Assembly: GCA_902510025.1 (NCBI GenBank)
Contig: CABWZX010000003.1
Coordinates: forward strand, 1-62,180
Origin: an uncultured Pelagibacteraceae bacterium
GTDB lineage: Bacteria; Pseudomonadota; Alphaproteobacteria; Pelagibacterales; AG-422-B15
DNA length: 62,180 nucleotides
Reading direction: 5' to 3'
Below the pieces are notes generated by a model. That model had not been told where the DNA came from, did not search any database, and was given only the letters and a program-made list of their open reading frames with translations. Shown here in pieces: positions 24,104-40,722 of the stretch; position 1 is the first letter of the stretch; each line of letters opens with the position of its first letter. Made by a program: the position numbers and the translations under genes.

Positions 24104-24799
24104 ATGTCCAAAGTTTTAATACTAAACCCTAGTGATCATGTTGCCATTACTTTTTGGTTGATTTCTATGGCCATGGTTGCTGCAACTGCTTTTTTCTTTT
24201 TAGAAAGAGACAGAGTAGCTGGTAAATGGAAAACGTCACTTACAGTAGCTGGATTAGTTACTGGTGTAGCGGCGTGGCACTACTTCTATATGAGAGGCGT
24301 ATGGGTAGCTACTGGGGATTCACCTACAGTACTTCGATACATTGACTGGTTAATTACAGTACCTCTTCAAATTGTTGAATTTTACGTAATTCTTGCTGCT
24401 GTAACCACTGTAGCTGTTGGCTTATTCTGGAGATTGCTAGTTGCATCTCTAGTAATGCTTGTCTTCGGTTATGTTGGTGAAACAGGAGCATTAAATACAA
24501 CATTAGCGTTTGTCATCGGAATGGCAGCTTGGTTGTATATCGTTTACGAAATTTTTGCAGGTGAAGCTAGCAAAGCGAATGCTGGAAGTGGAAATGCTGC
24601 TGGACAAGCAGCGTTTAACGCTTTGAGATTAATTGTTACAGTTGGATGGGCAATTTATCCGCTTGGTTATGCTATTGGTTATTTTGGTGGCGGCGTAGAC
24701 GCTGGCAATCTTAACCTTATTTACAACGTTGCAGACTTTGTAAATAAAATTGCATTTGGTATGGCTATCTATGTAGCTGCTATATCTGACAGCAATTAA
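24104..24799 (+). CDS. proteorhodopsin, DTE proton pump with Gln at the 105-equivalent tuning site (blue type)
   Basis: HYFYMR, RYIDWLITVPLQIVEF, GWAIYP, ADFVNK (retinal-binding Lys); AGGGGA RBS. Confidence 0.96.
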   Translation: MSKVLILNPSDHVAITFWLISMAMVAATAFFFLERDRVAGKWKTSLTVAGLVTGVAAWHYFYMRGVWVATGDSPTVLRYIDWLITVPLQIVEFYVILAAVTTVAVGLFWRLLVASLVMLVFGYVGETGALNTTLAFVIGMAAWLYIVYEIFAGEASKANAGSGNAAGQAAFNALRLIVTVGWAIYPLGYAIGYFGGGVDAGNLNLIYNVADFVNKIAFGMAIYVAAISDSN

Positions 24800-24820
24800 T
24801 AACCTGCGATCTAACTATCT

Positions 24821-24850
24821 AAAAGGGGCCTCTTCGGGCCCCTTTTTTTT
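24821..24850 (+). terminator. intrinsic terminator after proteorhodopsin (bidirectional type)
   Basis: AAAAGGGGCCT-CTTC-GGGCCCCTTTTTTTT. Confidence 0.9.
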
Positions 24851-24924
24851 AACTATTTATTTCTTTGAGTGCTTATAAAGGACTAGTAGCTAATTCAATT
24901 AATCGATATAAAATAGTATTTAGT

Positions 24925-25012
24925 GGCCTCATGGCGGAATTGGTAGACGCAAAGGACTTAAAATCCTTTGGGATTTATTCCCGTCCCGGTTCGAGTCCGG
25001 GTGAGGCCACCA
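24925..25012 (+). tRNA. tRNA-Leu(UAA)
   Basis: GGCCTCA/TGAGGCC acceptor stem, CT-TAA-AA anticodon loop, long variable arm, GGTTCGAGTCC, encoded CCA. Confidence 0.96.
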
Positions 25013-25064
25013 ATTTTCCAATAGATATTTGACAATAAGATTGCTATAGTAAATTCCGCATATT

Positions 25065-25958
25065 ATGAAAAATACTAAATTAATTTTTTCCTCTTTTATT
25101 GTTTTCTGTTTGCTTGGCTCTATAAGCTTTGGTGGCAGTCTTGAGAATGCTTTTTTAAGCAAAACAAATCAGTTTATAGATAAGGTAACATCAAGTTTTA
25201 CCAACCTAATTAAAGGAAACGATCGAGTTAAGTATTTGGATTTTAAGGTTGATGTTCAGGAGAGCTTAAAACCTACAATTTCTATGACTAATGTGAATAG
25301 AATTATTGAGAATACAAATAGTGCTTTCTTTAATCAGAACTCTCTATCTCTTCATGATAATGATCAAACAATCAATTTTGGATTAGGGTATAGATCACTT
25401 ATTAACGATGACACGATAATGTTAGGAGGCAATGTTTTTCTAGATTATTCATTTGATGAACAGCATCAAAGACAGGGAGCGGGGGTAGAAGCTATTTCGA
25501 GCGTATTTGATGTTCGAGGAAATTATTATGATGCAACAAGTGGAATACAAACACTTGGAGACGGAAGTACAGAAGAAGCTTTAGATGGATGGGATGCGCG
25601 ACTTGATTATCATCTCCCAGTAGCAAATGATGTCAGAATATTTGCTGGACTTTTTGAATTTGAAAATGCAGCTGGCACTTATGAATTAGATGGTGAAAAA
25701 TACGGGCTTGCAGGAAGAATAGACAGATTAAGTTTTGAAGCAGGGTATATAGATGATAATAAAACTGGAGATGGTTCATTTGCAAATATTACCTATATAT
25801 TTCCTCTAGGAGCGAACAAAGCAACAAAGATAAATTCTGCTGGAAACTTTATGGAATATGTTAGCGTGCGTGATCGACTATATGAACCTGTTAAGAGAGA
25901 AAACAAAATCAGAGTAGTGAAAATTAGTGCTGCAAATATTGTAGTGAGTGGATTCTAA
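25065..25958 (+). CDS. inverse autotransporter (invasin/intimin-type) beta-barrel protein without passenger
   Basis: Signal peptide; TINFGLGYR, GGNVFLDY, HQRQGAGVE, NYY, LDGWD; linker-like RLYEPVKRENKIRV near the C-terminus. Confidence 0.8.
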   Translation: MKNTKLIFSSFIVFCLLGSISFGGSLENAFLSKTNQFIDKVTSSFTNLIKGNDRVKYLDFKVDVQESLKPTISMTNVNRIIENTNSAFFNQNSLSLHDNDQTINFGLGYRSLINDDTIMLGGNVFLDYSFDEQHQRQGAGVEAISSVFDVRGNYYDATSGIQTLGDGSTEEALDGWDARLDYHLPVANDVRIFAGLFEFENAAGTYELDGEKYGLAGRIDRLSFEAGYIDDNKTGDGSFANITYIFPLGANKATKINSAGNFMEYVSVRDRLYEPVKRENKIRVVKISAANIVVSGF

Positions 25959-25961
25959 ATT

Positions 25962-27074
25962 ATGAGTAGATTAATTTCGTATATCTTTTTATTTATAAGT
26001 CCGGTTGTTCTAAACTTAGCTTTTAGTTCTTATTCTTATGCAGTATTGAGTAATAGTGTTGAAAATCTTAAAACTTGTGGATCAGGAAAGACTTATAGTG
26101 AAGATTCTGACTCATGCGGTGGTTCATGTGCTGTAAACGAATCTGGTGCAATAATTATTGCAAGCAATGGGCTACCTTATGATGCTGAGACCTCAGACGC
26201 TTATCGAGACAGTTGCAATATGATACCTGACTTGTACCGTGTAACTCTTTACAAAGGAGGGCTTTGTACATCAGATCCATATTCAGCTTCAGGTACAACT
26301 GTTGATTATACTACTAGCTGTGATTTATTTTTTGATGACTCCTCTGGAAAAGCAATTACTTTAACTAATCAAGGTGATGGTACTGCAACCGCTAGCCCAT
26401 CTTTAGTTGATGATGGTGTTAATCTTGGAATTAAGACATATACACATGCTTTTATGGTAATGAGTAACCATTTGCAAATTAAGCATGATCAAACATATGA
26501 TTTTAGTGGTACTGCAACTGCTTCAGCAATGAAAGGTGGAGGTGATACAGTTTCATCAGGAACTACATGTTGGACAGTAGATAGAACATCTACTTATTCA
26601 AATTTAGACGGGACGACAGGAGCCAATCATGGTTCGGTCGCACTAAGAATTGGAGATGGAACTGTAGCAGAGGCGAGCACTAAGTGTGGTTCCGCAGTTG
26701 ATGGAACATTTGACTATGCTACAGAAATTATAGAAACTTTTGGTGAGGCAAGTGGCAATTGGAACGCTAGCGCTGTGACTTCAAGATGGCCATATGCAGA
26801 CTCATCGTTAGGCGGAGGAACAAAAGCTGCAATTCTATTACAGTCAGATTTAGAAACAGTTGCTACTACAATGGAAAATGGAGTAGCAATGTTATATGCA
26901 GTTGATTTAACAAATCCATTAGTTATTACAGAAAACACTACTCAGTTCAATATAGGTTTTGGCCTTTCAGGATCTGTGAGTGTTGATTTTACTACACAAG
27001 ATGGTGCAGATAATTTTCTTTTTATAACAAAGCATGGCGCTGATCCAGTAGATATTCTTTTTACTGCAAATTAA
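25962..27074 (+). CDS. secreted Cys-rich, Ser/Thr/Gly/Asp-rich hypothetical protein
   Basis: Signal peptide ending SYSYA; 8 Cys; starts 3 nt after the barrel gene. Confidence 0.8.
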   Translation: MSRLISYIFLFISPVVLNLAFSSYSYAVLSNSVENLKTCGSGKTYSEDSDSCGGSCAVNESGAIIIASNGLPYDAETSDAYRDSCNMIPDLYRVTLYKGGLCTSDPYSASGTTVDYTTSCDLFFDDSSGKAITLTNQGDGTATASPSLVDDGVNLGIKTYTHAFMVMSNHLQIKHDQTYDFSGTATASAMKGGGDTVSSGTTCWTVDRTSTYSNLDGTTGANHGSVALRIGDGTVAEASTKCGSAVDGTFDYATEIIETFGEASGNWNASAVTSRWPYADSSLGGGTKAAILLQSDLETVATTMENGVAMLYAVDLTNPLVITENTTQFNIGFGLSGSVSVDFTTQDGADNFLFITKHGADPVDILFTAN

Positions 27075-30249: not shown

Positions 30250-31449
30250 ATGAAAATATTATGTATTTTATATGATGATCCAAAGGGAGGAATGCCTAGC
30301 AAATATGCTTTAGACAGTATTCCAAAATTGGATAAATATCCAGATGGCATGACATTACCGTCGCCTAAGGCTATTGATTTTAATCCAGGCGATCTACTAG
30401 GATGTGTATCTGGTGAATTAGGTTTAAGAAAATTCTTAGAAGATGCTGGACATACATTGGTTGTTACTTCAGATAAAGATGGTGATGGCTGTCAGGCTGA
30501 TAAAGAATTGGTTGATGCAGATGTTGTAATATCTCAACCGTTCTTTCCTTATTATTTAACAAGAGAAAAAATGGAGACTGCTCCAAATTTAAAAATGGCA
30601 ATTACTGCCGGTATTGGATCTGACCACGTAGATTTACAGGCTGCAATGGACAGAAAAATTGATGTCGTTGAAGTAACTTTCTGTAATTCAAGATCTGTTG
30701 CTGAACATATTGTCATGATGATTTTATCTCTTGTGAGAGACTATCATAATCAGCACAAGATTATTAATGACGGTGGTTGGAACATTGCTGATGCTGTTCA
30801 ACGTTCATACGATCTTGAAGGTATGCACGTAGGTACTGTTGCTGCCGGTAGAATTGGTCTAGATGCATTAAGAAAATTAAAACATTTCGATGTTAATATG
30901 CATTACTTTGATAGACACAAATTGCCAGATGAAGTTGAAAAAGAATTAAACTTAACTTTTCATGATTCAGTAGAATCTCTAGTTGCAGTATGTGATGTAG
31001 TAACAATCAACTGCCCACTTCATCCTGAAACTGAGCATATGTTTAATGATGAACTGATTAGCAAGATGAAACGAGGTGCTTACATTGTAAACACTGCTCG
31101 AGGTAAAATCTGTGATAAAGATGCTATTGCACGTGCTCTAGAGTCTGGTCAATTGAGTGGATATGCAGGAGACGTTTGGTTTCCTCAACCAGCTCCAAAT
31201 GATCATGTTTGGAGATCAATGCCTCACCATGGAATGACACCTCACACTTCAGGAACATCATTATCTGCTCAGGCAAGGTATGCTGCTGGTGTAAGAGAAA
31301 TACTAGAATGTTTCTTTGATGGTACTCCAATTAGAGATCCATATCTTATTGTTCAAAATGGTGAACTAGCTGGAATGGGCGCGCACTCTTATAGTAAAGG
31401 AACAGCTACAGGCGGTTCTGAAGAAGCGGCTAAATATAAAAAACAATAA
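30250..31449 (+). CDS. fdh: NAD-dependent formate dehydrogenase
   Basis: SQPF, TAGIGSDH, AAGRIG, NTARG, GDVWFPQP, TPHTSG; GGGAG RBS. Confidence 0.96.
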   Translation: MKILCILYDDPKGGMPSKYALDSIPKLDKYPDGMTLPSPKAIDFNPGDLLGCVSGELGLRKFLEDAGHTLVVTSDKDGDGCQADKELVDADVVISQPFFPYYLTREKMETAPNLKMAITAGIGSDHVDLQAAMDRKIDVVEVTFCNSRSVAEHIVMMILSLVRDYHNQHKIINDGGWNIADAVQRSYDLEGMHVGTVAAGRIGLDALRKLKHFDVNMHYFDRHKLPDEVEKELNLTFHDSVESLVAVCDVVTINCPLHPETEHMFNDELISKMKRGAYIVNTARGKICDKDAIARALESGQLSGYAGDVWFPQPAPNDHVWRSMPHHGMTPHTSGTSLSAQARYAAGVREILECFFDGTPIRDPYLIVQNGELAGMGAHSYSKGTATGGSEEAAKYKKQ

Positions 31450-31459
31450 TTTAAATTTC

Positions 31460-31489
31460 ATATAGGACGGATGAAAATCCGTCCTATAT
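31460..31489 (+). terminator. strong stem-loop after fdh (terminator or 3' stabiliser)
   Basis: ATATAGGACGGAT-GAAA-ATCCGTCCTATAT, a perfect 13-bp stem; no U-tract. Confidence 0.6.
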
Positions 31490-31498
31490 AATGAGAAT

Positions 31499-32119
31499 AT
31501 GCTTAGCGTATTCAAAAATTACTTTGCACATTCAACGATTATTGGTTTTCTAATCATGGCAGCTGCTGGGCTGTACTATATTTTTTCTACAAATTTAATT
31601 ATCGAGAACATCTATTGGTTTTTTATTCCAATTATTCTTGCGCCTTTTTATGAGTGGTATGTTCATAAATATCAACTTCATAAGCAATTAAAAAAAAAAG
31701 ATGGATGGTATCGGAGGTATCAAATTATTCTTCATCATGGACATCATAGAGATCCAGATAATATTAACCTTCAATTCGCTCCTTGGAGGTATTTGATCTA
31801 TACATACGGACAAGTTTATCTTCTATATTCATTAATTTTCTTTAACTTTTCAACTTCTATGGTCCCGTTTACTGGACATCTTGTTTATCATTTGTGGTAT
31901 GAATGGATACATCTAGCCCACCATTCAAAAGATTACAAACCAGTAACTACTGTTGGAAAAAATTTAAGAGAATCTCATATGAGTCATCACTTTCATAATG
32001 AGAATTATAATTGGGGTATTACTAATATGATAGGGGATTATTTTTTTGGTTCTTTAAAAGATAATAAATCAATTAAAAAAAGCTCTACAACAAAATCTAT
32101 AGCAGGTTACACTGATTAA
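31499..32119 (+). CDS. sterol desaturase/fatty acid hydroxylase family membrane di-iron protein
   Basis: His boxes EWYVHKYQLH, HHGHH, EWIHLAHH, HMSHHF; TM segments. Confidence 0.85.
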   Translation: MLSVFKNYFAHSTIIGFLIMAAAGLYYIFSTNLIIENIYWFFIPIILAPFYEWYVHKYQLHKQLKKKDGWYRRYQIILHHGHHRDPDNINLQFAPWRYLIYTYGQVYLLYSLIFFNFSTSMVPFTGHLVYHLWYEWIHLAHHSKDYKPVTTVGKNLRESHMSHHFHNENYNWGITNMIGDYFFGSLKDNKSIKKSSTTKSIAGYTD

Positions 32120-32155
32120 TCCTATATGATGGATTAGCATAAAAAATATATAAAA

Positions 32156-32231
32156 TGGTGCCCTCACACGGACTTGAACCGCGAACCTATTGATTACAAA
32201 TCAATTGCTCTACCAATTGAGCTATGAGGGC
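32156..32231 (-). tRNA. tRNA-Thr(UGU)
   Basis: Reverse complement GCCCTCATAGCTCAATTGG...TT-TGT-AA...GGTTCAAGTCC...GAGGGCACCA. Confidence 0.96.
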
Positions 32232-32248
32232 AAAAAGGTCTTTCGAGG

Positions 32249-32277
32249 TTTATAATTTACCATATTCATGCAGTCAA
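32249..32277 (-). promoter_or_regulatory. sigma70 promoter of tRNA-Thr
   Basis: Minus strand TTGACT-17 nt-TATAAA. Confidence 0.7.
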
Positions 32278-32325
32278 TTAAAAGCTGTCTAATTGTATTT
32301 TTAAAGAAATATATTGATTTTAGAC

Positions 32326-33501
32326 TTACATATTTTTAACTAGGAAACCCATTTGTTTCACTAGAATTTCATGAGCTTGTGGTCCAACATGACAAAAATC
32401 AATGTAGCAATCATTACAGCCATCATAAGTTCTTGAAAGGTCAATAAAATTTATTTTTGAATCAAGTGCATATGACCTAATGAGAGGATAAACCGTCTTG
32501 TATTGGTTAGACATCTCCTGAATACTTCGATCACTTACACCTTCTTTTAAAATATTAAGATAGTCAATATTTGGGGTTCCAATATATGATACAGGTTGGA
32601 GTATAGCAAAAAATTCTAGATTATTCGCCTCTGATAATTGAGCAGCTTGTTTCCATGTTTCTACAAGTACACGAGCAACGTAATGAGCTCGATTTTTATC
32701 ATCAGCACAAGAGTAGTAGAGCTCTGCTTTTTTATTTTTAGAAGTGTTAATAGAAGGTTTAAGTTTTCTTTTTACAACTTGGAACATATCAATTAATTGT
32801 GAAAAAGTTCTTTTAAAACTCCACTTGTTATCTCGATCCCCAGGCATCCATAGATTTATTACTTTTTCCTTTTCCAATGTATTTCTTATTTTTTCTTCAT
32901 ATACAGTGTTTAATCCTAAAACTTCTGATCTGCAAAGAGATGCGATATCATTAACTCCATCATAAAAAACAACAGTACTTTTTTTGTTAGAACCATTAAT
33001 TTTTTTCTGAATTAATAGATTTTGCAAATATGCTAAAGATTGCCTAGCTGAATAACCATCTTCACCAAAATTAAAAGACTTAATATGATATTCTTTAGAA
33101 AATAAAGAAGGAAAAGTATTCTCGTCATTAACACCAGTACCCCAAGTGGTTGAGCCTCCAAAAAACAAAACTTCTTGATTTGAAGATTTTATATTAGCCT
33201 CTAAAGTTATACGATTGCCGTTTTTTATATTTATTGTTTCGCCATTAAAATCATCTCTTCTCCACGTTATAAAATCATAATATTTTACAGGTATAATAGA
33301 TAATTCTTCAAAGTGTTTTTTTGCCCAATTATGTTCAGAATATAAATGCACATCTGACCTTTTGTCATTAAAAGATTGAGTTAAATTATCATTAAGAAAA
33401 ATTTTCCATATTCCAAAAATTATAGGTGGTGAAATAATTAATAAAAACAATAAAGAAAAAATTAGGGAAATGTTTATTGCTAAAATTTTAATCCAGTTCA
33501 T
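32326..33501 (-). CDS. membrane-anchored SGNH/GDSL hydrolase family protein
   Basis: N-terminal TM; FFGGSTTWG (block I), FYDGVND (block III), DFCH (block V). Confidence 0.8.
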   Translation of the reverse strand: MNWIKILAINISLIFSLLFLLIISPPIIFGIWKIFLNDNLTQSFNDKRSDVHLYSEHNWAKKHFEELSIIPVKYYDFITWRRDDFNGETINIKNGNRITLEANIKSSNQEVLFFGGSTTWGTGVNDENTFPSLFSKEYHIKSFNFGEDGYSARQSLAYLQNLLIQKKINGSNKKSTVVFYDGVNDIASLCRSEVLGLNTVYEEKIRNTLEKEKVINLWMPGDRDNKWSFKRTFSQLIDMFQVVKRKLKPSINTSKNKKAELYYSCADDKNRAHYVARVLVETWKQAAQLSEANNLEFFAILQPVSYIGTPNIDYLNILKEGVSDRSIQEMSNQYKTVYPLIRSYALDSKINFIDLSRTYDGCNDCYIDFCHVGPQAHEILVKQMGFLVKNM

Positions 33502-35326
33502 ATTTTTCCTTATAGTTTTCTTTAAGGCTTTTATCTTGATCTTCTTTATAAAGAAGAAAATCTTCGACTATTAGAATATCTAGTTCTGTGCCCATAAAGC
33601 ATTTAAACGCATCTTCTGGGGAGCAGACGATTGGTTCTCCGCGAACATTAAATGATGTATTTACTATTAAAGGACAATTCGTTAGTTCTTTAAATTGAGA
33701 AATAAGAGAATAATAGCGAGGATTGGTATCTTTGTGAACTGTTTGGATTCGTGCACTATAATCTACGTGTGTAACAGCGGGGACACTAGAACGTGGAATA
33801 TTTAGTTTATCAATTCCAAATAAAGATTTTTGGTCATTAGTCATATTTAAACATTTATCTTTCTTAACACCAGCTACTATCATCATGTATGGACTGTCTT
33901 CGGTTAATGTAAACCAATCACTAACGTTTTCACTTATAATGCTTGGCGCAAAGGGTCGGAAACTTTCCCTATATTTAACTTTGAGATTAAGTTGTTTTTG
34001 CATAACTTTAGATCTTGGATCGGCAATAATACTTCTAGCTCCCAATGCTCTTGGTCCAAACTCCATTCTTCCTTGCATCCATCCTATTGCCTTTCCTTTT
34101 GATAATTCAATAGCAGTTCTTTCTATAAGATTTGCTTCATCTAATTTATGATAGCTTGCCCCAGTATTTTTAAGAAATAGTTCTATCTCATTATTTGAAT
34201 ATTTAGGTCCTAATAGAGAACCTTTCATCATATCACCTTGAGGATTTTGATTTCGAGGCTTATTATACATAATATAGTAAGCACCCATAGCTGCCCCAAG
34301 AGCTCCTCCTGCATCTCCAGCGGCTGGTTGTATCCAAATTTTATCAAATATTTTTTCTGATTGAAGAATACCATTAGCAACACAGTTCAATGCTACTCCT
34401 CCAGCTAAACATAAATTTTTTTCCCCAGTTTCTTTAGAAATAGATTTTGCTAATTTTATTAAAACTTCTTCAGTTACTTTTTGTACTGAAGATGCAAGAT
34501 CCATTTCTTTTTGTGTAATTGATTCCTCAGATTTTCGTGGTGGGCCACCAAATAAATTATCAAACTTCTTATTTGTCATTTTTAATCCAGTGCAGTAATC
34601 AAAATAATCCATATTCAGATGAAAACTTCCATCTTCTTTTATGTCTATTAGTTTTTCTTTTATTAATTTTGTATATTTAGGCTCTCCATATGGAGCTAGT
34701 CCCATAACTTTATATTCACCAGAATTTACTTTAAAACCAATGTAATATGTAAAAGCAGAATACAGTAGACCTAGAGAGTGAGGGAAATGGATCTCCTTAT
34801 GGACTGATATTTTGTTTTGATGTCCAATTGCAAGTGATGTTGTCGTCCATTCTCCAACTCCATCTAATGTAAGTATAGCTGCTTTATTAAAAGGGGATGG
34901 AAAGAATGCACTAGCTGCATGAGATAAGTGGTGTTCAGAGAATAATAAACGATTATGCCAATTTATTTTTTCTTTAAATGTATTCTCTAATTCTCTTACG
35001 AGCAAAGATTTCTGGAAAAGTTTATCTCTTATCCATAATGGCATTGCTTTAAAGAAGCTACGAAAACCACGTGGTGCAAAAGCAAGATAAGTCTCAATTA
35101 ATCTTTCAAATTTAAGGAAAGGTTTTTCATAAAAAACTACTGATTCTAATTTTGAAGGTAAAATTTTTGCTTCTTTTAAACAATATTTAATAGCATTTCT
35201 AGGAAAGTCTTGATCATGTTTTTTCCTTGTAAAACGTTCTTCTTGAGCTGCAGCTACAATAATTCCATCTTTTAGGATACAAGCTGCACTATCATGATAC
35301 CAAGCTGATATTCCAAGTATGTACAT
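33488..35326 (-). CDS. O-carbamoyltransferase (NodU/CmcH/SxtI family)
   Basis: YHDSAA, EHHLSHAAS, TLDGVGE, EYKVMGLAPYG, GGVALN, EFGPRALG, NTSFNVRGEP. Confidence 0.95.
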   Translation of the reverse strand: MYILGISAWYHDSAACILKDGIIVAAAQEERFTRKKHDQDFPRNAIKYCLKEAKILPSKLESVVFYEKPFLKFERLIETYLAFAPRGFRSFFKAMPLWIRDKLFQKSLLVRELENTFKEKINWHNRLLFSEHHLSHAASAFFPSPFNKAAILTLDGVGEWTTTSLAIGHQNKISVHKEIHFPHSLGLLYSAFTYYIGFKVNSGEYKVMGLAPYGEPKYTKLIKEKLIDIKEDGSFHLNMDYFDYCTGLKMTNKKFDNLFGGPPRKSEESITQKEMDLASSVQKVTEEVLIKLAKSISKETGEKNLCLAGGVALNCVANGILQSEKIFDKIWIQPAAGDAGGALGAAMGAYYIMYNKPRNQNPQGDMMKGSLLGPKYSNNEIELFLKNTGASYHKLDEANLIERTAIELSKGKAIGWMQGRMEFGPRALGARSIIADPRSKVMQKQLNLKVKYRESFRPFAPSIISENVSDWFTLTEDSPYMMIVAGVKKDKCLNMTNDQKSLFGIDKLNIPRSSVPAVTHVDYSARIQTVHKDTNPRYYSLISQFKELTNCPLIVNTSFNVRGEPIVCSPEDAFKCFMGTELDILIVEDFLLYKEDQDKSLKENYKEKYELD

Positions 35327-35329
35327 AGT

Positions 35330-35737
35330 TTAAAATTGCTGTTTAAAAGATTGTGGATTCAGTTCCTTTGATTCTCTTTTTCTCCAATAGGATTTTTTTG
35401 TTGGACTTTTTAGAAGGAGTTCATCGCGTTTAAATAATCTCATAAAAATTCCTACAGGAGTGAAGATAAGTAAGAAAATAATACCCATAACTACGGGGCT
35501 AACTATTTTTCCTAAGACTATACCTATATATATCCAAAATTTATTTAGTGGTAAAAGTAGCGTATCTTTAAATAATGCTAAAAAGAAAAAAAGAGTACTT
35601 AAACAAATAAATATTGTTGCAATAAATAGATTGTTGTTAAGATAAAAATAGATAGCTATAACTATGAATATTATAGAGAAAAAAATTCCAAATTTTCGAT
35701 TAGAAGGAAGTTCTATTTCATTTTGATTAATAAGCAT
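35330..35737 (-). CDS. SxtJ-family membrane protein
   Basis: SNRKFG, TM helices, PLNKFW...LGKIVSP...FTP.G, SYW, ends KQQF; directly upstream of the carbamoyltransferase. Confidence 0.8.
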   Translation of the reverse strand: MLINQNEIELPSNRKFGIFFSIIFIVIAIYFYLNNNLFIATIFICLSTLFFFLALFKDTLLLPLNKFWIYIGIVLGKIVSPVVMGIIFLLIFTPVGIFMRLFKRDELLLKSPTKKSYWRKRESKELNPQSFKQQF

Positions 35738-35806
35738 TTTACGAATTTTAATTTATATTTAGGTTATGAATATTATTTAACCTTATAGAATATATATGTA
35801 TTAAAC

Positions 35807-35959
35807 TCAAAAAATTGTGTAAATGAATGGTGCAATAATTGGTTGACCTTGAACAAAAATCAATAAACCGCCAATAATCAAAGAAAAAGCAATAATTGGC
35901 GCTAGCCATAGTTTTTTTCTTACTTTTAAAAATTGCCAAAGCTCTGAAATAAAACTCAT
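35807..35959 (-). CDS. SxtK/DUF5989-like 50-aa membrane microprotein (not in ORF track)
   Basis: Manual translation MSFISELWQFLKVRKKLWLAPIIAFSLIIGGLLIFVQGQPIIAPFIYTIF*; RKK.WL.P and APFIYT.F signature. Confidence 0.85.
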   Translation of the reverse strand: MSFISELWQFLKVRKKLWLAPIIAFSLIIGGLLIFVQGQPIIAPFIYTIF

Positions 35960-36064
35960 TTGCTACACTTTATAAAATTATAGTTAAGTTGTCTCGAAAG
36001 AAAAAAACTTTTTGAATTTTTGTAAAACAGGTTTAACCTTTTTCTTCATATACCGGAGTAAATA

Positions 36065-37123
36065 ATGGCAAAAAACTTAATTGAAAGATTAGATTCTGGG
36101 ATTTTACTATGTGCTGAGGGTTACCTTTTTGCAATGGAGCGGAGAGGTTATTTATCAGCAGGAGCATTTGTCCCTGAGGTTGTACTAGAACATCCAGAAG
36201 TTGTAAGTCAGTTACATAGAGAATTTATAAGGGCTGGCTCTGATATCGTTCAAGCATTTACATATTATGGTCATAGAGAAAAACTACGTTTAATTGGGAA
36301 AGAAGAACTTCTAGAACCAATGCAAAAGAACGCTCTGCAGATTGCAAAAGATGCTGCTAAAGAATTTAAAGATTTAGATTTAATGGTTTGTGGTGATGTT
36401 GCGAATACAAATATTTACGATCCTAACGATAAACAAACACATGTCGAATGTCAGAGGATGTTTGAAGAACAAGTTAAATGGGCAAAGGAAGCCGGTGTAG
36501 ATTTTATTATTGCAGAAACTATTAACTGGACTGGTGAGATGGAGATTGCATTAAAAGCAATTAAACAAGAAGGAATTATTGCAATTACAAATTTTGCAAT
36601 TCCAAAAGGTGATGTTACTAGAGAAGGTCATAGCCCTGAAGATGCGTGCAAGATGATGGAAGATCAGGGCGCTGATGTTGTTGGATTGAATTGTTATAGA
36701 GGTCCAGAAATGATGATGAAGTTATTAACAAAGATCAGAGACAAAGTTTCTTGTCATGTTTCAGCTCTACCTGTTCCTTACAGGACAACAGAAGATTACC
36801 CAGGATTTTTAAATCAGCCAGCAGATGTTGTAGATAGTCAGTGCTCATGTATTCCAGGTGAAAATGCATTTCCAGTTGCTTTAGATAATCTTTATTGTAA
36901 TAGATTTGAAATGGCTGAGTTTGCTAAACAATGTGAAAGTCAAAATATTAACTTTATTGGAATATGCTGTGGAGCTGAACCTCATCATGTTAGAGAAATG
37001 GCTGTAGCTCTTGGCAGAAAACCAATATCATACAAATATTACCCTGACATCAGTAGACATTGGTTGCACGGAAAAGATGATTCATTTCTTGATATCAACA
37101 CAAGTATGAGCAAAAAATATTAG
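36065..37123 (+). CDS. bhmT: betaine-homocysteine S-methyltransferase
   Basis: EF.RAGSD..QAFTYY, IAET, Zn ligands GLNC and GICCG; GGAG RBS. Confidence 0.85.
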   Translation: MAKNLIERLDSGILLCAEGYLFAMERRGYLSAGAFVPEVVLEHPEVVSQLHREFIRAGSDIVQAFTYYGHREKLRLIGKEELLEPMQKNALQIAKDAAKEFKDLDLMVCGDVANTNIYDPNDKQTHVECQRMFEEQVKWAKEAGVDFIIAETINWTGEMEIALKAIKQEGIIAITNFAIPKGDVTREGHSPEDACKMMEDQGADVVGLNCYRGPEMMMKLLTKIRDKVSCHVSALPVPYRTTEDYPGFLNQPADVVDSQCSCIPGENAFPVALDNLYCNRFEMAEFAKQCESQNINFIGICCGAEPHHVREMAVALGRKPISYKYYPDISRHWLHGKDDSFLDINTSMSKKY

Positions 37124-37126
37124 TTT

Positions 37127-39535
37127 ATGGAAAGTCACGCCAAGGTAGTAGTTATTGGCGGAGGTGTTGTCGGATGCTCAATTCTTTATCATTTATCTAA
37201 ATTTGGATTGAAAGATTGTATTTTACTTGAGCGTAAGGAATTAACTTCCGGATCCTCTTGGCATGCTGCGGGCAATGTTCATGTGATTTCTTCTGATCCA
37301 AATATTTCTCGGATGATGGCTTATACAATTGGTCTGTATAAAGAGATTGAGCAAGAGTCAGGCCACTCCGTTGGATTTAAAGCAAGCGGGGGATTTTATT
37401 TAGCGTCGAATGATGTATGGGCTGATTATTTAAAAAGAGAAAGGTCTAAAGCACGTTACATGGGCCTAGATCAGGAATTTATTTCATTAGAAGAGGTTAA
37501 AAAAAAACACCCTTTGATTGATCCTAACAAATACCTCTTGGCTTTATGGGATCCAATTGATGGTGAAGTTGATCCTTCAGGAGTAACTTACGCCTTTGCA
37601 AAAGCTGCAAAGGTACATGGTGGAAAATATTATACAAATACAGTGGTTACAGATACTCAACAAAAAACTGATGGGTCTTGGGATGTAATCACTGATAAAG
37701 GAAATATTAATGCAGAAATAGTTATAAATGCAGGAGGTTTATGGGCTAGAGAGGTCGGCAAATTAGCTGGAATTAATTTACCAGTACAACCAATGGAGCA
37801 CCACTATTTAATTACAGAGCCCATTCCTGAAATAGAGGCAATGGGAAACGAAAAAAGGTTGCCTATTGGAACAGATTTTGAAGGCAACATATATTTTAGA
37901 CAAGAGGGGCAAGGTATGTTGCTTGGAACGTATGAACAAAAATCAACTCCTTGGAAAGTTGATGGAACACCTTTAGATTTTGGCCAAGAATTATTAGAAC
38001 CTAAATTAGAAAATATTCAGGATAGATTAGCTATAGGATTTAAGAGGATGCCAGCTTTAGAGAAGGCAGGAATAAAAAACATTGTTAATGGGCCTTTTAC
38101 TTTTGGTCCTGACGGCAGTCCTTTAATAGGTCCAGTGCCTGGAATGAAGAATTACTGGGTTGCAGTTGGTGTGATGGCTGGTTTTTGCCAGGGAGGTGGA
38201 GTAGGAAAATGCATTGCTGAATGGATTATTGATGGTGAACCATCGATAGATGTTTGGGCAATGGACGTTGCTAGGTTTGGTGAATATGCATCACCACATT
38301 ATGGCACGATAAAATCTTCTGAGAATTATGAAAGAAGATTCATTATGACGTTTCCAAATGAAACATTACCTAAAGGAAGAAAACAAAAAACGACAGCATT
38401 GTATGATCGATTTGTATCACAAGGTGCAGTCATGGGTGATAGTTTTGGATTGGAGAATGCCTTATGGTTTGCTAATGACAAAGAAGATGCTTATGAGGAT
38501 CCAACCATCAAACGATCAAGATCACATGAATATGTATCAAAAGAAGTAACTAATGTAAGAGAAAATGTTGGAGTAATTGAATTAGCAAATTTTTCTAAAC
38601 ATGAATTTAAAGGAAAAGAATCAAGAAAATATTTAGATTTTGTACTAGCTGGGCGAATTCCAAAACCAGGTCGAATTTCTTTATGTCCAATGTTGACCAT
38701 GAAGGGCAAATTGTGTGGAGACCTGACTGTGGCTTGTCTTAATGAAGAAGAATTTATTGTTTTTGGATCTGGTGCAGCTCAAGAGGCACATCGCAGGTGG
38801 TTTGAAAGTCATTTTGGCTCTCTAGATGTAAAATATAAAAATAGGTCTGATGATTTTCATGGACTGGCTATAGCAGGGCCAAGATCAAGAGATTTATTAC
38901 AAAAGATAGTTAATGAGGATGTTTCAAATGATACATTTAAATTTAGAGATACGAAGAGGATGTTTGTTGCTGGAGTCCCTGCAATTGTGAACAGGATTTC
39001 TTTTACTGGAGAACTTGGATATGAAATTTATGTAGCTCCCCATTACCAGTTAAAGTTATATGAAGAAATTGAGAGTGCAGGAAAGGAATTTAGCATTAAA
39101 CCTTTTGGCTCTAGAGCTTTGATGTCTATGAGGTTAGAAAAAAATTGGGGAGCATGGACTCTTGATTACAGACCTGATTTTACAGCAAAAGAATCTGGCC
39201 TAGATATTTTTGTAGACTGGAACAAAGATTTTATAGGGAAAGAGAGCGCTATGAATGATAATAGCAATTTAAAGCTAACCTCTCTTCTAATAAAAACCAG
39301 TGATATTGATGTTACAAATAATGAGGCTGTGATGAAAAAAGATAAGAGTATCGGGTATATTACTTCGGGCGGATATGCTCATTATGTAGGACAAAGCATT
39401 GCCTTTTCTTATTTAGATGAAACAGATATAAATTCTGGAGAAAGTATTCAAGTAGAAATCAATGGAGATTTGTACGACTCTATTATTATTAATAAGCCAC
39501 TTTATGACCCTAGTGGTAAAAAGATGAGAATATGA
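37127..39535 (+). CDS. dimethylglycine/sarcosine dehydrogenase-like FAD oxidoreductase with GcvT C-terminal domain
   Basis: GGGVVG, SSWHAAG, EHHY, GPFTFGPDG, RISFTGELGYE, RLEK. Confidence 0.88.
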   Translation: MESHAKVVVIGGGVVGCSILYHLSKFGLKDCILLERKELTSGSSWHAAGNVHVISSDPNISRMMAYTIGLYKEIEQESGHSVGFKASGGFYLASNDVWADYLKRERSKARYMGLDQEFISLEEVKKKHPLIDPNKYLLALWDPIDGEVDPSGVTYAFAKAAKVHGGKYYTNTVVTDTQQKTDGSWDVITDKGNINAEIVINAGGLWAREVGKLAGINLPVQPMEHHYLITEPIPEIEAMGNEKRLPIGTDFEGNIYFRQEGQGMLLGTYEQKSTPWKVDGTPLDFGQELLEPKLENIQDRLAIGFKRMPALEKAGIKNIVNGPFTFGPDGSPLIGPVPGMKNYWVAVGVMAGFCQGGGVGKCIAEWIIDGEPSIDVWAMDVARFGEYASPHYGTIKSSENYERRFIMTFPNETLPKGRKQKTTALYDRFVSQGAVMGDSFGLENALWFANDKEDAYEDPTIKRSRSHEYVSKEVTNVRENVGVIELANFSKHEFKGKESRKYLDFVLAGRIPKPGRISLCPMLTMKGKLCGDLTVACLNEEEFIVFGSGAAQEAHRRWFESHFGSLDVKYKNRSDDFHGLAIAGPRSRDLLQKIVNEDVSNDTFKFRDTKRMFVAGVPAIVNRISFTGELGYEIYVAPHYQLKLYEEIESAGKEFSIKPFGSRALMSMRLEKNWGAWTLDYRPDFTAKESGLDIFVDWNKDFIGKESAMNDNSNLKLTSLLIKTSDIDVTNNEAVMKKDKSIGYITSGGYAHYVGQSIAFSYLDETDINSGESIQVEINGDLYDSIIINKPLYDPSGKKMRI

Positions 39536-40722
39536 AAAAGGAAGATGAAAAAAAATTATCTGATGTATTAGATCTTGCGAAGATAAAGGTAGTTACAAAA
39601 CCTATAGCTGAATCTCACGGTCTTCCTAACGAATGTTATATGAGTGATGAGTATGCTAAGATTGAGAGAAAAAAATTATTTGAAGAAAAATGGTCTGTTA
39701 TTGGTGTTGCAAGTTCTACTCCCAACCCTGGAGATATAAGGCCATTTGATTTATTAGATATTCCACTAATAGTTTTAAGAGATAAAAATAATAAGATCAG
39801 AGTCTTTCATAATGTATGTAGCCATAGAGGATTTAAACTTGTTCAACAGTCAGAAAAATTAAAAAAATTTATAAGATGCCCTTATCATTCATGGTCATAC
39901 GATTTAGAAGGTGAATTAATTTCAACGCCGCATATTGGCGGAGTCGGTACGCATGAGTCAGATGATTTTGATAAATCATGCAATGGATTAAAAGAAGTAA
40001 GGTCTTACGTATGGATGGACCTTATTTTTGTAAATATATCTGCAAAAGCAGAACCATTTGATAAATTTATTAAGCCACTTGATAACCGATGGTCAGAATT
40101 CTTAACGAAGGAAGATAGAAAGTTAATTAGACATGCAATTGATCATGGATATTTTCAATTTAGGGTTAAAAGTAATTGGAAATTTGCCATTGAAAACTAT
40201 TGTGAAAGTTATCATTTGCCTTGGATTCATCCAGATTTAAATTCTTATTCTAAGTTAGAAGATCATTACATGATTCTATCCAATAATAATGGATTTGCTG
40301 GACAAGGCAGTGTTACCTATAATCCAAATTTTATTTCTAAGGAGAAATTTAGTTGTTTTCCAAATTGGCCTAAGGACAAATTAGATCACGCCGAATATAT
40401 TGCACTTTTTCCTAACGTAATGTTAGGAATTCATAGAGATCATTATTTTGCTTTTTGGTTAGAGCCAATTAATCATTCATCTACTATAGAACATATGGAA
40501 GTTTATTATGTTGGAGATGATTCAGCATATTCAGATCAATATAAAGAAATTAGAGAAGAGAATAGTAGTTTGTGGTTTAAGGTGTTATCAGAAGATATTA
40601 ATGCAATTGAAGGAATGCAAGCAGGAAGAAATTCTCCTTCTTATACTGGTGGAAAATTTTCACCAGTAATGGATACAGCAGCCCATCATTTTCACAAGTG
40701 GGTAGCAACAAATATAATTTAA
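39532..40722 (+). CDS. Rieske non-heme iron oxygenase alpha subunit (choline monooxygenase/betaine demethylase-like)
   Basis: CSHRG...CPYHSW Rieske motif; NWK..ENYCESYHLPWIH and ED iron ligands. Confidence 0.88.
   Translation: MKKEDEKKLSDVLDLAKIKVVTKPIAESHGLPNECYMSDEYAKIERKKLFEEKWSVIGVASSTPNPGDIRPFDLLDIPLIVLRDKNNKIRVFHNVCSHRGFKLVQQSEKLKKFIRCPYHSWSYDLEGELISTPHIGGVGTHESDDFDKSCNGLKEVRSYVWMDLIFVNISAKAEPFDKFIKPLDNRWSEFLTKEDRKLIRHAIDHGYFQFRVKSNWKFAIENYCESYHLPWIHPDLNSYSKLEDHYMILSNNNGFAGQGSVTYNPNFISKEKFSCFPNWPKDKLDHAEYIALFPNVMLGIHRDHYFAFWLEPINHSSTIEHMEVYYVGDDSAYSDQYKEIREENSSLWFKVLSEDINAIEGMQAGRNSPSYTGGKFSPVMDTAAHHFHKWVATNII

Follow-up and report, generated by a model that had tools for sequence, protein, structure and literature searches.

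Four co-oriented genes carried by an uncultured Pelagibacteraceae bacterium may encode a relay that passes carbamoyl groups across the inner membrane to the cell envelope. The genes occupy positions 32326..35959 on the minus strand of a 62,180-nucleotide (nt) stretch of DNA (contig CABWZX010000003.1, assembly GCA_902510025.1), called the window below, and we name them K, J, I and L, in that order, after the saxitoxin genes sxtK, sxtJ, sxtI and sxtL. In the reading that we prefer, the carbamoyltransferase I would load a carbamoyl group onto a C-terminal tyrosine of the membrane microprotein K, which would hand it to the serine of the predicted periplasmic SGNH protein L and from there to an envelope acceptor, all without a membrane-bound O-acyltransferase (MBOAT); arguing by analogy with known acyl-tyrosine shuttles, we give this reading a probability of about 0.55. 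An earlier, sequence-only reading of the window had already proposed a stand-alone trans-membrane carbamoylation relay, and the idea now gains a concrete carrier that had not been named, the FxYxxF tyrosine at the C-terminus of K, while at the far end of the relay the SGNH gene adjoins the others in only part of the loci. The list of open reading frames (ORFs) and the Pfam searches bear out that reading's description of the genes: all four pass the cut-offs of the families it named, at the place and in the orientation it gave, and the coordinates agree with its 14-nt overlap between the L and I genes and its membrane proteins of 50 and 135 residues. The host assembly is 55% complete, and the genome-wide negatives given below hold for that part.

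The carrier role is suggested by the tail of K. K (35807..35959; this and the following cassette features are all on the minus strand) is an SxtK/DUF5989 microprotein of 50 residues (PF19451, 74.8 bits against a cut-off of 27), in which hydropathy distinguishes a basic N-terminal helix, a single hydrophobic segment and a C-terminal tail. We take DUF5989 to be SxtK from its position beside SxtJ-family genes. The tail is hydrophobic, comprises 13 residues and ends in the hexapeptide FIYTIF (35810..35827), an ending of the form FxYxxF that is found in just one of the 1629 ORFs of the host genome, namely K. Among 117 unique K tails the tyrosine stands at position -4 in every one and is replaced by phenylalanine in none (0/117), FxYxxF directly precedes the stop in 109, and the flanking phenylalanine positions vary slightly; a separate set of K proteins gave 120/120 for the tyrosine and 116/120 for the motif. 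K is highly conserved along its whole length and single-copy in most genomes. Only W18, P21 and Y47 are invariant in a 70-row alignment, and Tyr47 (35819-35821) is the predicted carbamoyl carrier. The accessible text of PMC12148441 defines FXYXXF as the C-terminal motif by which DltX and PatA shuttle acyl groups: in these MBOAT-SGNH systems the MBOAT protein acylates the tyrosine of the DltX microprotein or of the PatA tail, and an SGNH protein (DltD or PatB) then receives the acyl group on its serine. The tail of K has the sequence required of such acyl-tyrosine shuttles. The terms "carbamoyl" and "sxt" do not occur in that paper, and a literature search, outside which most subscription papers and bioRxiv supplements fell, found nothing linking SxtK/DUF5989 to FXYXXF, to an acyl shuttle or to a carbamoyl relay. 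Entries with C-terminally extended K proteins have unconserved tails and were set aside as stop-codon errors. A J-K fusion, suggested by an Atlas cluster (185 residues, score 0.75, 11% of the members having DUF5989), is only a tentative lead, as it was not found in 30 loci of a second phylum (see below) or among 150 K representatives; an Atlas search for K outside its own family returned no usable match.

I (33488..35326; 612 residues) belongs to the NodU/CmcH/TobZ carbamoyltransferases, having both the N-terminal and the C-terminal domain (Carbam_trans_N, 362.8 bits; Carbam_trans_C, 241.7 bits) and the conserved His/Asp residues. Eleven positions (H11, D12, H132, H133, H136, D155, D338, R426, K451, R453 and T557) are invariant in 85/85 aligned members of its clade. 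Its nearest sequences in the PDB are NovN-type (311 bits), GdmN and TobZ, and it falls far short of the NodU equivalog NF041651 (139 bits against a cut-off of 1000). TobZ-type enzymes convert carbamoyl phosphate and ATP to carbamoyl-adenylate. Conservation and hydrophobic moment together single out residues 65-104 (35015..35134) as an amphipathic segment and a predicted membrane or J/K docking surface: column identity is 0.83 there against 0.74 for the whole protein, the four 11-mers of highest hydrophobic moment all fall within it, and it differs in three carbamoyltransferases without K. J (35330..35737; 135 residues) is an SxtJ-family membrane protein (PF19588, 25.9 bits against 24.4) with three helices (residues 13-33, 37-56 and 58-101) in an AlphaFold2 (AF2) model of mean predicted local distance difference test (pLDDT) score 89. 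A fold search of the PDB gave no match at E ≤ 0.001, no residue is invariant in the family, and a search for longer forms of J found none among 7999 scored candidates, which is weak evidence. In one metagenome-assembled genome, a single case, a 738-residue ORF (L187:8202-10418, G130:C273) fuses I to an SxtJ domain that scores just under the Pfam cut-off (23.7 bits) and 78.6 bits with our own profile, and K lies directly downstream. From the genetic linkage, this fusion and the amphipathic segment, we infer that J is probably a membrane anchor or scaffold that holds I at the membrane.

L (32326..33501; 391 residues) is an N-terminally anchored SGNH protein and the predicted periplasmic transferase. 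Its Pfam score (Lipase_GDSL, 24.5 bits against 23.6), like that of J, is only narrowly above the cut-off; the SGNH blocks are in place (S117 in block I, G146 in II, N184 in III and D368-x-x-H371 in V), and a fold search agrees with the superfamily assignment (AF2 model, pLDDT 87.6). In 57 rows of the SGNH family S117 is kept in 56, N184 in 52 and H371 in 56; 39 close homologues of L all share four invariant cysteines, though five is the usual count. Hydropathy places the hydrophobic segment of L at residues 1-37, and such a segment precedes the serine in 57/57 rows; in the 53 rows with a single segment, net charge favours a cytoplasmic N-terminus in 43, and the count of K/R alone does so in 28, with 16 ties. 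The segment ahead of the serine and the net charge make it likely, as a prediction, that the L domain lies in the periplasm. A profile built from 57 cassette-linked proteins (threshold E ≤ 1e-15) found the family in 43/46 Pseudomonadota genomes with K against 14/255 without it, and in 30/33 genomes with K once the 13 that had contributed to the profile were dropped, figures that are inflated by related genomes, since kin are not independent. The SGNH partners are only 12-48% identical to L, whereas I, J and K are conserved, as would be expected if the SGNH protein selects the acceptor. In several genomes the family has as many as six copies. The host itself has a second member (G000:C9:11054-12214, L196; E 9e-30) beside an FkbM methyltransferase gene, possibly a second acceptor enzyme.

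The genetic linkage of the carbamoyltransferase with SxtJ and SxtK was examined from two directions. Around I, we analysed the best 80 loci of at least 594 relatives in GTDB, which span several phyla and many of which are cut by contig ends: 75 contain J, 72 contain K and 45 have an SGNH gene no more than 1.5 kb away, and beyond these there is no widely conserved neighbour family in the 80 loci. The second set avoids anchoring on I. A DUF5989 search of 301 Pseudomonadota genomes gave matches above the cut-off in 46 (about 15%), and 40 regions were taken around K, representing 41 of 49 matches outside the host genome after 8 near contig ends were left out; I adjoins K in 40/40, J is present in 36/40 and an adjacent SGNH gene in 14/40. 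In a second phylum (its locus L018 is labelled Acidobacteriota) K occurs in 63 of 151 genomes (42%), and 30 short loci from it have I in 26 and J in 24. The module thus stands alone outside toxin clusters, as had been supposed, and is widespread. K is matched by 5892 cluster representatives, the cassette occurs in SAR11-like bacteria, rhizobia and Nitrospira, and 476 plasmid records hold a carbamoyltransferase, 41 of them at least 60% identical to I, with K in 46 records. In a quick tree of 55 carbamoyltransferases, a single clade unites the 27 typical K-linked enzymes (Shimodaira-Hasegawa-like approximate likelihood ratio test 99); the window's I groups with other alphaproteobacteria and not with the copy of its own family (L136), and a divergent enzyme, L192, was unplaced. 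The usual gene orders are J-K-I and I-J-K, and none of 117 other loci with all three core genes has the window's order K-J-I. Locus L057 carries I, yet its genome has no K match. The GMP synthase gene guaA, an integration hotspot, lies near the cassette in L012, L016, L018, L028, L031, L036, L071 and L073. The pSymB of Sinorhizobium meliloti 1021 also has all the cassette genes, the SGNH gene in divergent form, behind a two-component pair (L083:6631-10833); the carbamoyltransferase there is presumably SM_b20472. A transposon-sequencing (TnSeq) study calls SM_b20472 the ornithine carbamoyltransferase arcB2 and, in its accessible text, lists it as essential for symbiosis (PMC7268258).

Taken as a relay, the cassette would work as follows. 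I, by what is known of its family, would make carbamoyl-adenylate, probably while SxtJ keeps it at the inner membrane, and the motif suggests that it would then load the carbamoyl group onto Tyr47 of K. By analogy with DltD and PatB, K would pass the group to Ser117 of L in the periplasm, and L would carbamoylate an envelope acceptor, most likely a glycan. Because there is no MBOAT tunnel, the hydrophobic tail of K would have to reach both faces of the membrane, meeting the cytoplasmic I on one side and the periplasmic L on the other, perhaps along J. In this scheme the conserved I, J and K would supply the carbamoyl group as one unit, and the choice of acceptor would fall to the variable SGNH protein. 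What likens the cassette to DltX-DltB-DltD and PatA-PatB is the C-terminal FXYXXF with its invariant tyrosine, borne in K as in DltX by a membrane microprotein, and the anchored extracytoplasmic SGNH partner with its Ser-His pair, here a prediction (PMC12148441, accessible text). It differs from both in that no MBOAT (PF03062) is matched in the cassette or in the host genome, in having no carrier-protein or acyl-CoA donor, so that soluble I together with SxtJ would be the loader, and in that the group transferred would be carbamoyl. Since it has no MBOAT it is not an MBOAT-SGNH system; it likely works like one.

Saxitoxin clusters contain the same four kinds of gene, sxtI-J-K-L, including the Pfam family SxtJ, and the accessible texts give lengths of 1839, 405 and 165 bp for sxtI, sxtJ and sxtK against 1839, 408 and 153 bp for I, J and K here (PMC2679770, PMC12300590). 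The sxt papers list SxtJ and SxtK as being of unknown function or, in a 2025 review, as acting with SxtI (accessible text of PMC2684587, PMC2679770, PMC12300590 and bioRxiv 2026.06.11.731795), and genes like sxtJ, K and L also occur in the suomilide cluster (PMC10157211). The cassette differs from the saxitoxin clusters in its order K-J-I-L and in its marine alphaproteobacterial host. Compared with the SGNH protein beside a Planktothrix sxtJ/sxtK pair, which stood in for SxtL, L gives E 0.14. A search with the Planktothrix SGNH protein for cyanobacterial sxt loci returned its own locus only. PF02274, the amidinotransferase family to which SxtG presumably belongs, is unmatched in the host genome, in keeping with the earlier statement that no sxtG lies nearby, and no sxtA-like ORF was noticed by eye among the ORFs between 24 and 44 kb, for which no model search was made. 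With no sxtG-type match and sxtA unseen, the cassette is not a saxitoxin cluster, and the breadth of the module makes it plausible that toxin clusters borrowed it. The association of sxtJ and sxtK with carbamoyltransferase genes is itself probably not new, since the 2008 sxt cluster paper reportedly places them next to carbamoyltransferases in other bacteria.

The closest solved relative of L is CgnD (8A2N; sequence E 1.8e-18, fold E 2.6e-12, identity 14-16%), one of the CgnD/CgnI proteins of crocagin biosynthesis, which shares its cluster with a carbamoyltransferase; that cluster is described as an outlier, in which the carbamoyltransferase replaces a glycosyltransferase (PMC10070186, accessible text). 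The gene table in that text lists no SxtJ or SxtK, and the cassette in turn has no precursor and no CgnB/C/E. The presence of a carbamoyltransferase beside CgnD would, by analogy, fit a transferase role for L, though it does not show it. TobZ, NovN, GdmN, NodU and WapO are built of two domains, like I, and share its conserved His/Asp residues at the metal site; these enzymes are described as acting directly on their acceptors, whereas the K-linked clade has small membrane proteins as partners and a conserved amphipathic segment that sets it apart.

Related tails and divergent or partial cassettes occur on viral contigs and plasmids. Hydrophilic peptides of 36-40 residues that end in DPFxY and one to three further residues occur in 11 of 80 loci on viral contigs (L215, L219, L236, L241, L246, L248, L254, L257, L258, L264 and L289), 8 of them in the form FxYxxF; 10 of the 11 directly follow a phage carbamoyltransferase, none is accompanied by J, and weak SGNH-like genes are present in 4 of the loci. 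That soluble DPFxY peptides occur beside phage carbamoyltransferases without J suggests that the carbamoyltransferase itself recognises the tyrosine tail, a point in favour of its loading. K proper was found in four loci on viral contigs, one of them with I, and in none of the annotated phages. A divergent cassette on a Sphingobium plasmid (L192:3420-7112) consists of a 247-residue gene whose C-terminus resembles by eye the end of J, a carbamoyltransferase labelled nolO, a 70-residue K-like gene ending in PFVYSIF and then a methyltransferase. A Planktothrix plasmid (L190:11582-13421) has J, K and an SGNH gene with sterol-desaturase and methyltransferase genes, and no carbamoyltransferase within 12 kb on either side.

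As acceptor class a glycan seems most likely, a judgement and not a result. Among the K-anchored loci 13/40 have glycan-pathway neighbours (a hand count of about one neighbour per side, without a background control), glycan genes are inserted between J and K in L180 and L185, and the loci on Paludisphaera, Leisingera and Ensifer plasmids sit among polysaccharide genes; the I-anchored set, in which 123 of 213 selected neighbours were scanned, gives a likewise mixed picture. In the host genome there is no match to glycosyltransferase family 2 (GT2) and a single GT4 on another contig, as the earlier remark that no glycosyltransferase lies nearby would have it. A family of class I S-adenosylmethionine (SAM) methyltransferases lies inside or beside the cassette in seven loci (L140:7840-8739, L146:12719-13648, L169:8342-9382, L185:5439-6404, L186:2276-3400, L187:10485-11504 and L188:5012-5884), twice between J and K, with 28-51% mutual identity and a similar gene at L192:6144-7112; it was not found in the host genome and is possibly an optional fifth member of the cassette.

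A number of observations weigh against the relay. Its weak point is the membrane crossing: in 70/70 aligned K proteins the stretch ahead of the membrane segment has more K/R than the final 14 residues, and the positive-inside rule puts the tail outside, whereas I is cytoplasmic; J, moreover, has neither a channel-like fold nor an invariant catalytic residue, and the soluble phage tails imply that the tail can be of use where no membrane is crossed. As to the motif, the K homologues were chosen partly on their tail, a hydrophobic motif of six residues can arise by convergence, and the K profile matched no DltX or MBOAT chain in the PDB. On the SGNH side, the sequence-only reading's partner protein keeps its anchor, its intact triad, its predicted outward orientation and its co-occurrence at genome level, but an SGNH gene is close by in only 45/80 and 14/40 loci, and the family was not found at E ≤ 1e-15 in 3 of the 46 genomes with K. 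Of the 13 glycan contexts 7 come from one family, and most loci, the window's included, lie among housekeeping genes. The accessible literature also contains other assignments: SxtL has been proposed as a putative decarbamoylase (PMC2684587, PMC2679770), CgnD is a very slow leader protease in vitro (PMC10070186), and carbamoylation of Pseudomonas lipopolysaccharide is ascribed, putatively, to WapO alone (PMC8005017).

Many of these points would be accommodated if J and K served only as a membrane anchor or activator and I directly carbamoylated an acceptor bound to the membrane, such as a lipid-linked sugar, on the cytoplasmic side. The tyrosine of K would in that case be there for binding, and the SGNH protein, as an auxiliary esterase or decarbamoylase, would edit the product on the outside. 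The topology problem then vanishes, the I-J fusion and the amphipathic segment fit plain anchoring, the SGNH gene need not always be adjacent, the decarbamoylase proposal for SxtL and the WapO precedent fall into place, and the phage peptides show the tail working with the enzyme alone. We nonetheless regard this account as rather unlikely, as it leaves unexplained the FXYXXF match at the extreme C-terminus, the complete absence of phenylalanine in place of the tyrosine and the way in which the SGNH family tracks K across genomes. Alternatively, the cassette might tailor a small secondary metabolite, the substrate coming from genes elsewhere in the genome or from uptake, with no envelope polymer involved and the relay optional. 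All the named precedents (saxitoxin, suomilide and crocagin) are natural-product clusters, the nearest solved enzymes (NovN-type, GdmN and TobZ) use small molecules, and the SAM-methyltransferases recur in seven loci, with a similar gene after K in L192; but the 80 loci show no conserved biosynthetic core beside the cassette, the cassette is present in streamlined genomes of 1.2-1.5 Mb and the informative contexts are mostly those of glycan biosynthesis, which makes this improbable. That K is itself the end substrate, its tail carbamoylated by I and the modified peptide then cleaved or processed by a CgnD-like SGNH protein, in the manner of peptides made by the ribosome and modified after translation (RiPPs), seems very improbable: CgnD, the best match in structure, cuts a modified precursor that terminates in an aromatic tripeptide, and the soluble phage peptides look like short precursors, yet K is mostly single-copy and conserved over its full length, unlike variable RiPP cores, CgnD turns over very slowly, and there is no conserved exporter or further tailoring gene. 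The carbamoyl relay from I through the tyrosine of K to the serine of L is the reading that we retain.

The cassette is mobile. In a relative's genome (G306, locus L199) a gene like that of betaine-homocysteine methyltransferase (BHMT) directly follows tRNA-Thr, an empty site, and one contig from run X1 (depth 3.8) joins position 32286 to 36001 with 15 other letters between, so the cassette is an insertion of about 3.7 kb with an approximate extent of 32287..36000. The tRNA-Thr(tgt) gene (32156..32231, minus strand; ARAGORN) is a host gene downstream of the cassette and outside the insertion. A classic island with att-type integration at tRNA-Thr was rejected, since neither end of the tRNA is duplicated in the assembly and the cassette sits on its 5' side. 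Among relatives, whose genomes measure 1.2-1.5 Mb, tRNA-Thr holds the same position in 9/11 loci and the region behind it varies; a close I homologue is present in 11/40, at different sites. Within the cassette, the junction of I and L is bridged by contigs from other runs (X2 and X3) and that of J and K by a contig from X1, possibly the source sample. The GC content of 0.303 is below the genome mean of 0.326, as the sequence-only reading's "visibly AT-rich" implied, but little weight attaches to it because 16% of 629 windows of that size have a GC content no higher than this. A scan for promoters and terminators came out at chance level (18 vs 22.1 and 2 vs 1.6).

The surroundings (30250-40722, partly read by eye) are genes of one-carbon and betaine metabolism: a formate-dehydrogenase-like gene, a fatty-acid-hydroxylase family gene, the BHMT-like gene, a dimethylglycine-dehydrogenase-like gene and a Rieske oxygenase gene. 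The fatty-acid-hydroxylase gene (31499-32119) was considered as an sxtD-like member of the cassette and rejected, because it is present in 23/24 genomes of the host family. Further away (24104-27074) lie a proteorhodopsin-type gene, a tRNA-Leu, a gene with an inverse-autotransporter beta-domain (25065-25958) and one for a secreted-looking protein of 370 residues without a Pfam match (25962-27074).

More generally, we suggest tentatively, at a little less than even odds, that cassettes of the SxtIJKL type are a third architecture for trans-membrane acylation, after MBOAT-SGNH and AT3-SGNH, in which a soluble carbamoyltransferase would charge a tyrosine shuttle of the DltX kind with no MBOAT tunnel, and exchangeable periplasmic SGNH proteins would carbamoylate envelope glycans. 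If the relay is true, SxtJ and SxtK would gain functions, and proteins like SxtL and CgnD would come to be seen as carbamoyl transferases. The question turns on a single conserved tyrosine, which makes it accessible to the methods already applied to DltX and PatA, and a model organism, Sinorhizobium meliloti 1021, carries the cassette on pSymB. Tyrosine shuttles would then not be tied to MBOAT proteins, carbamoylation could take place beyond the cytoplasm, and this very common cassette would prove to be an overlooked system of surface modification.

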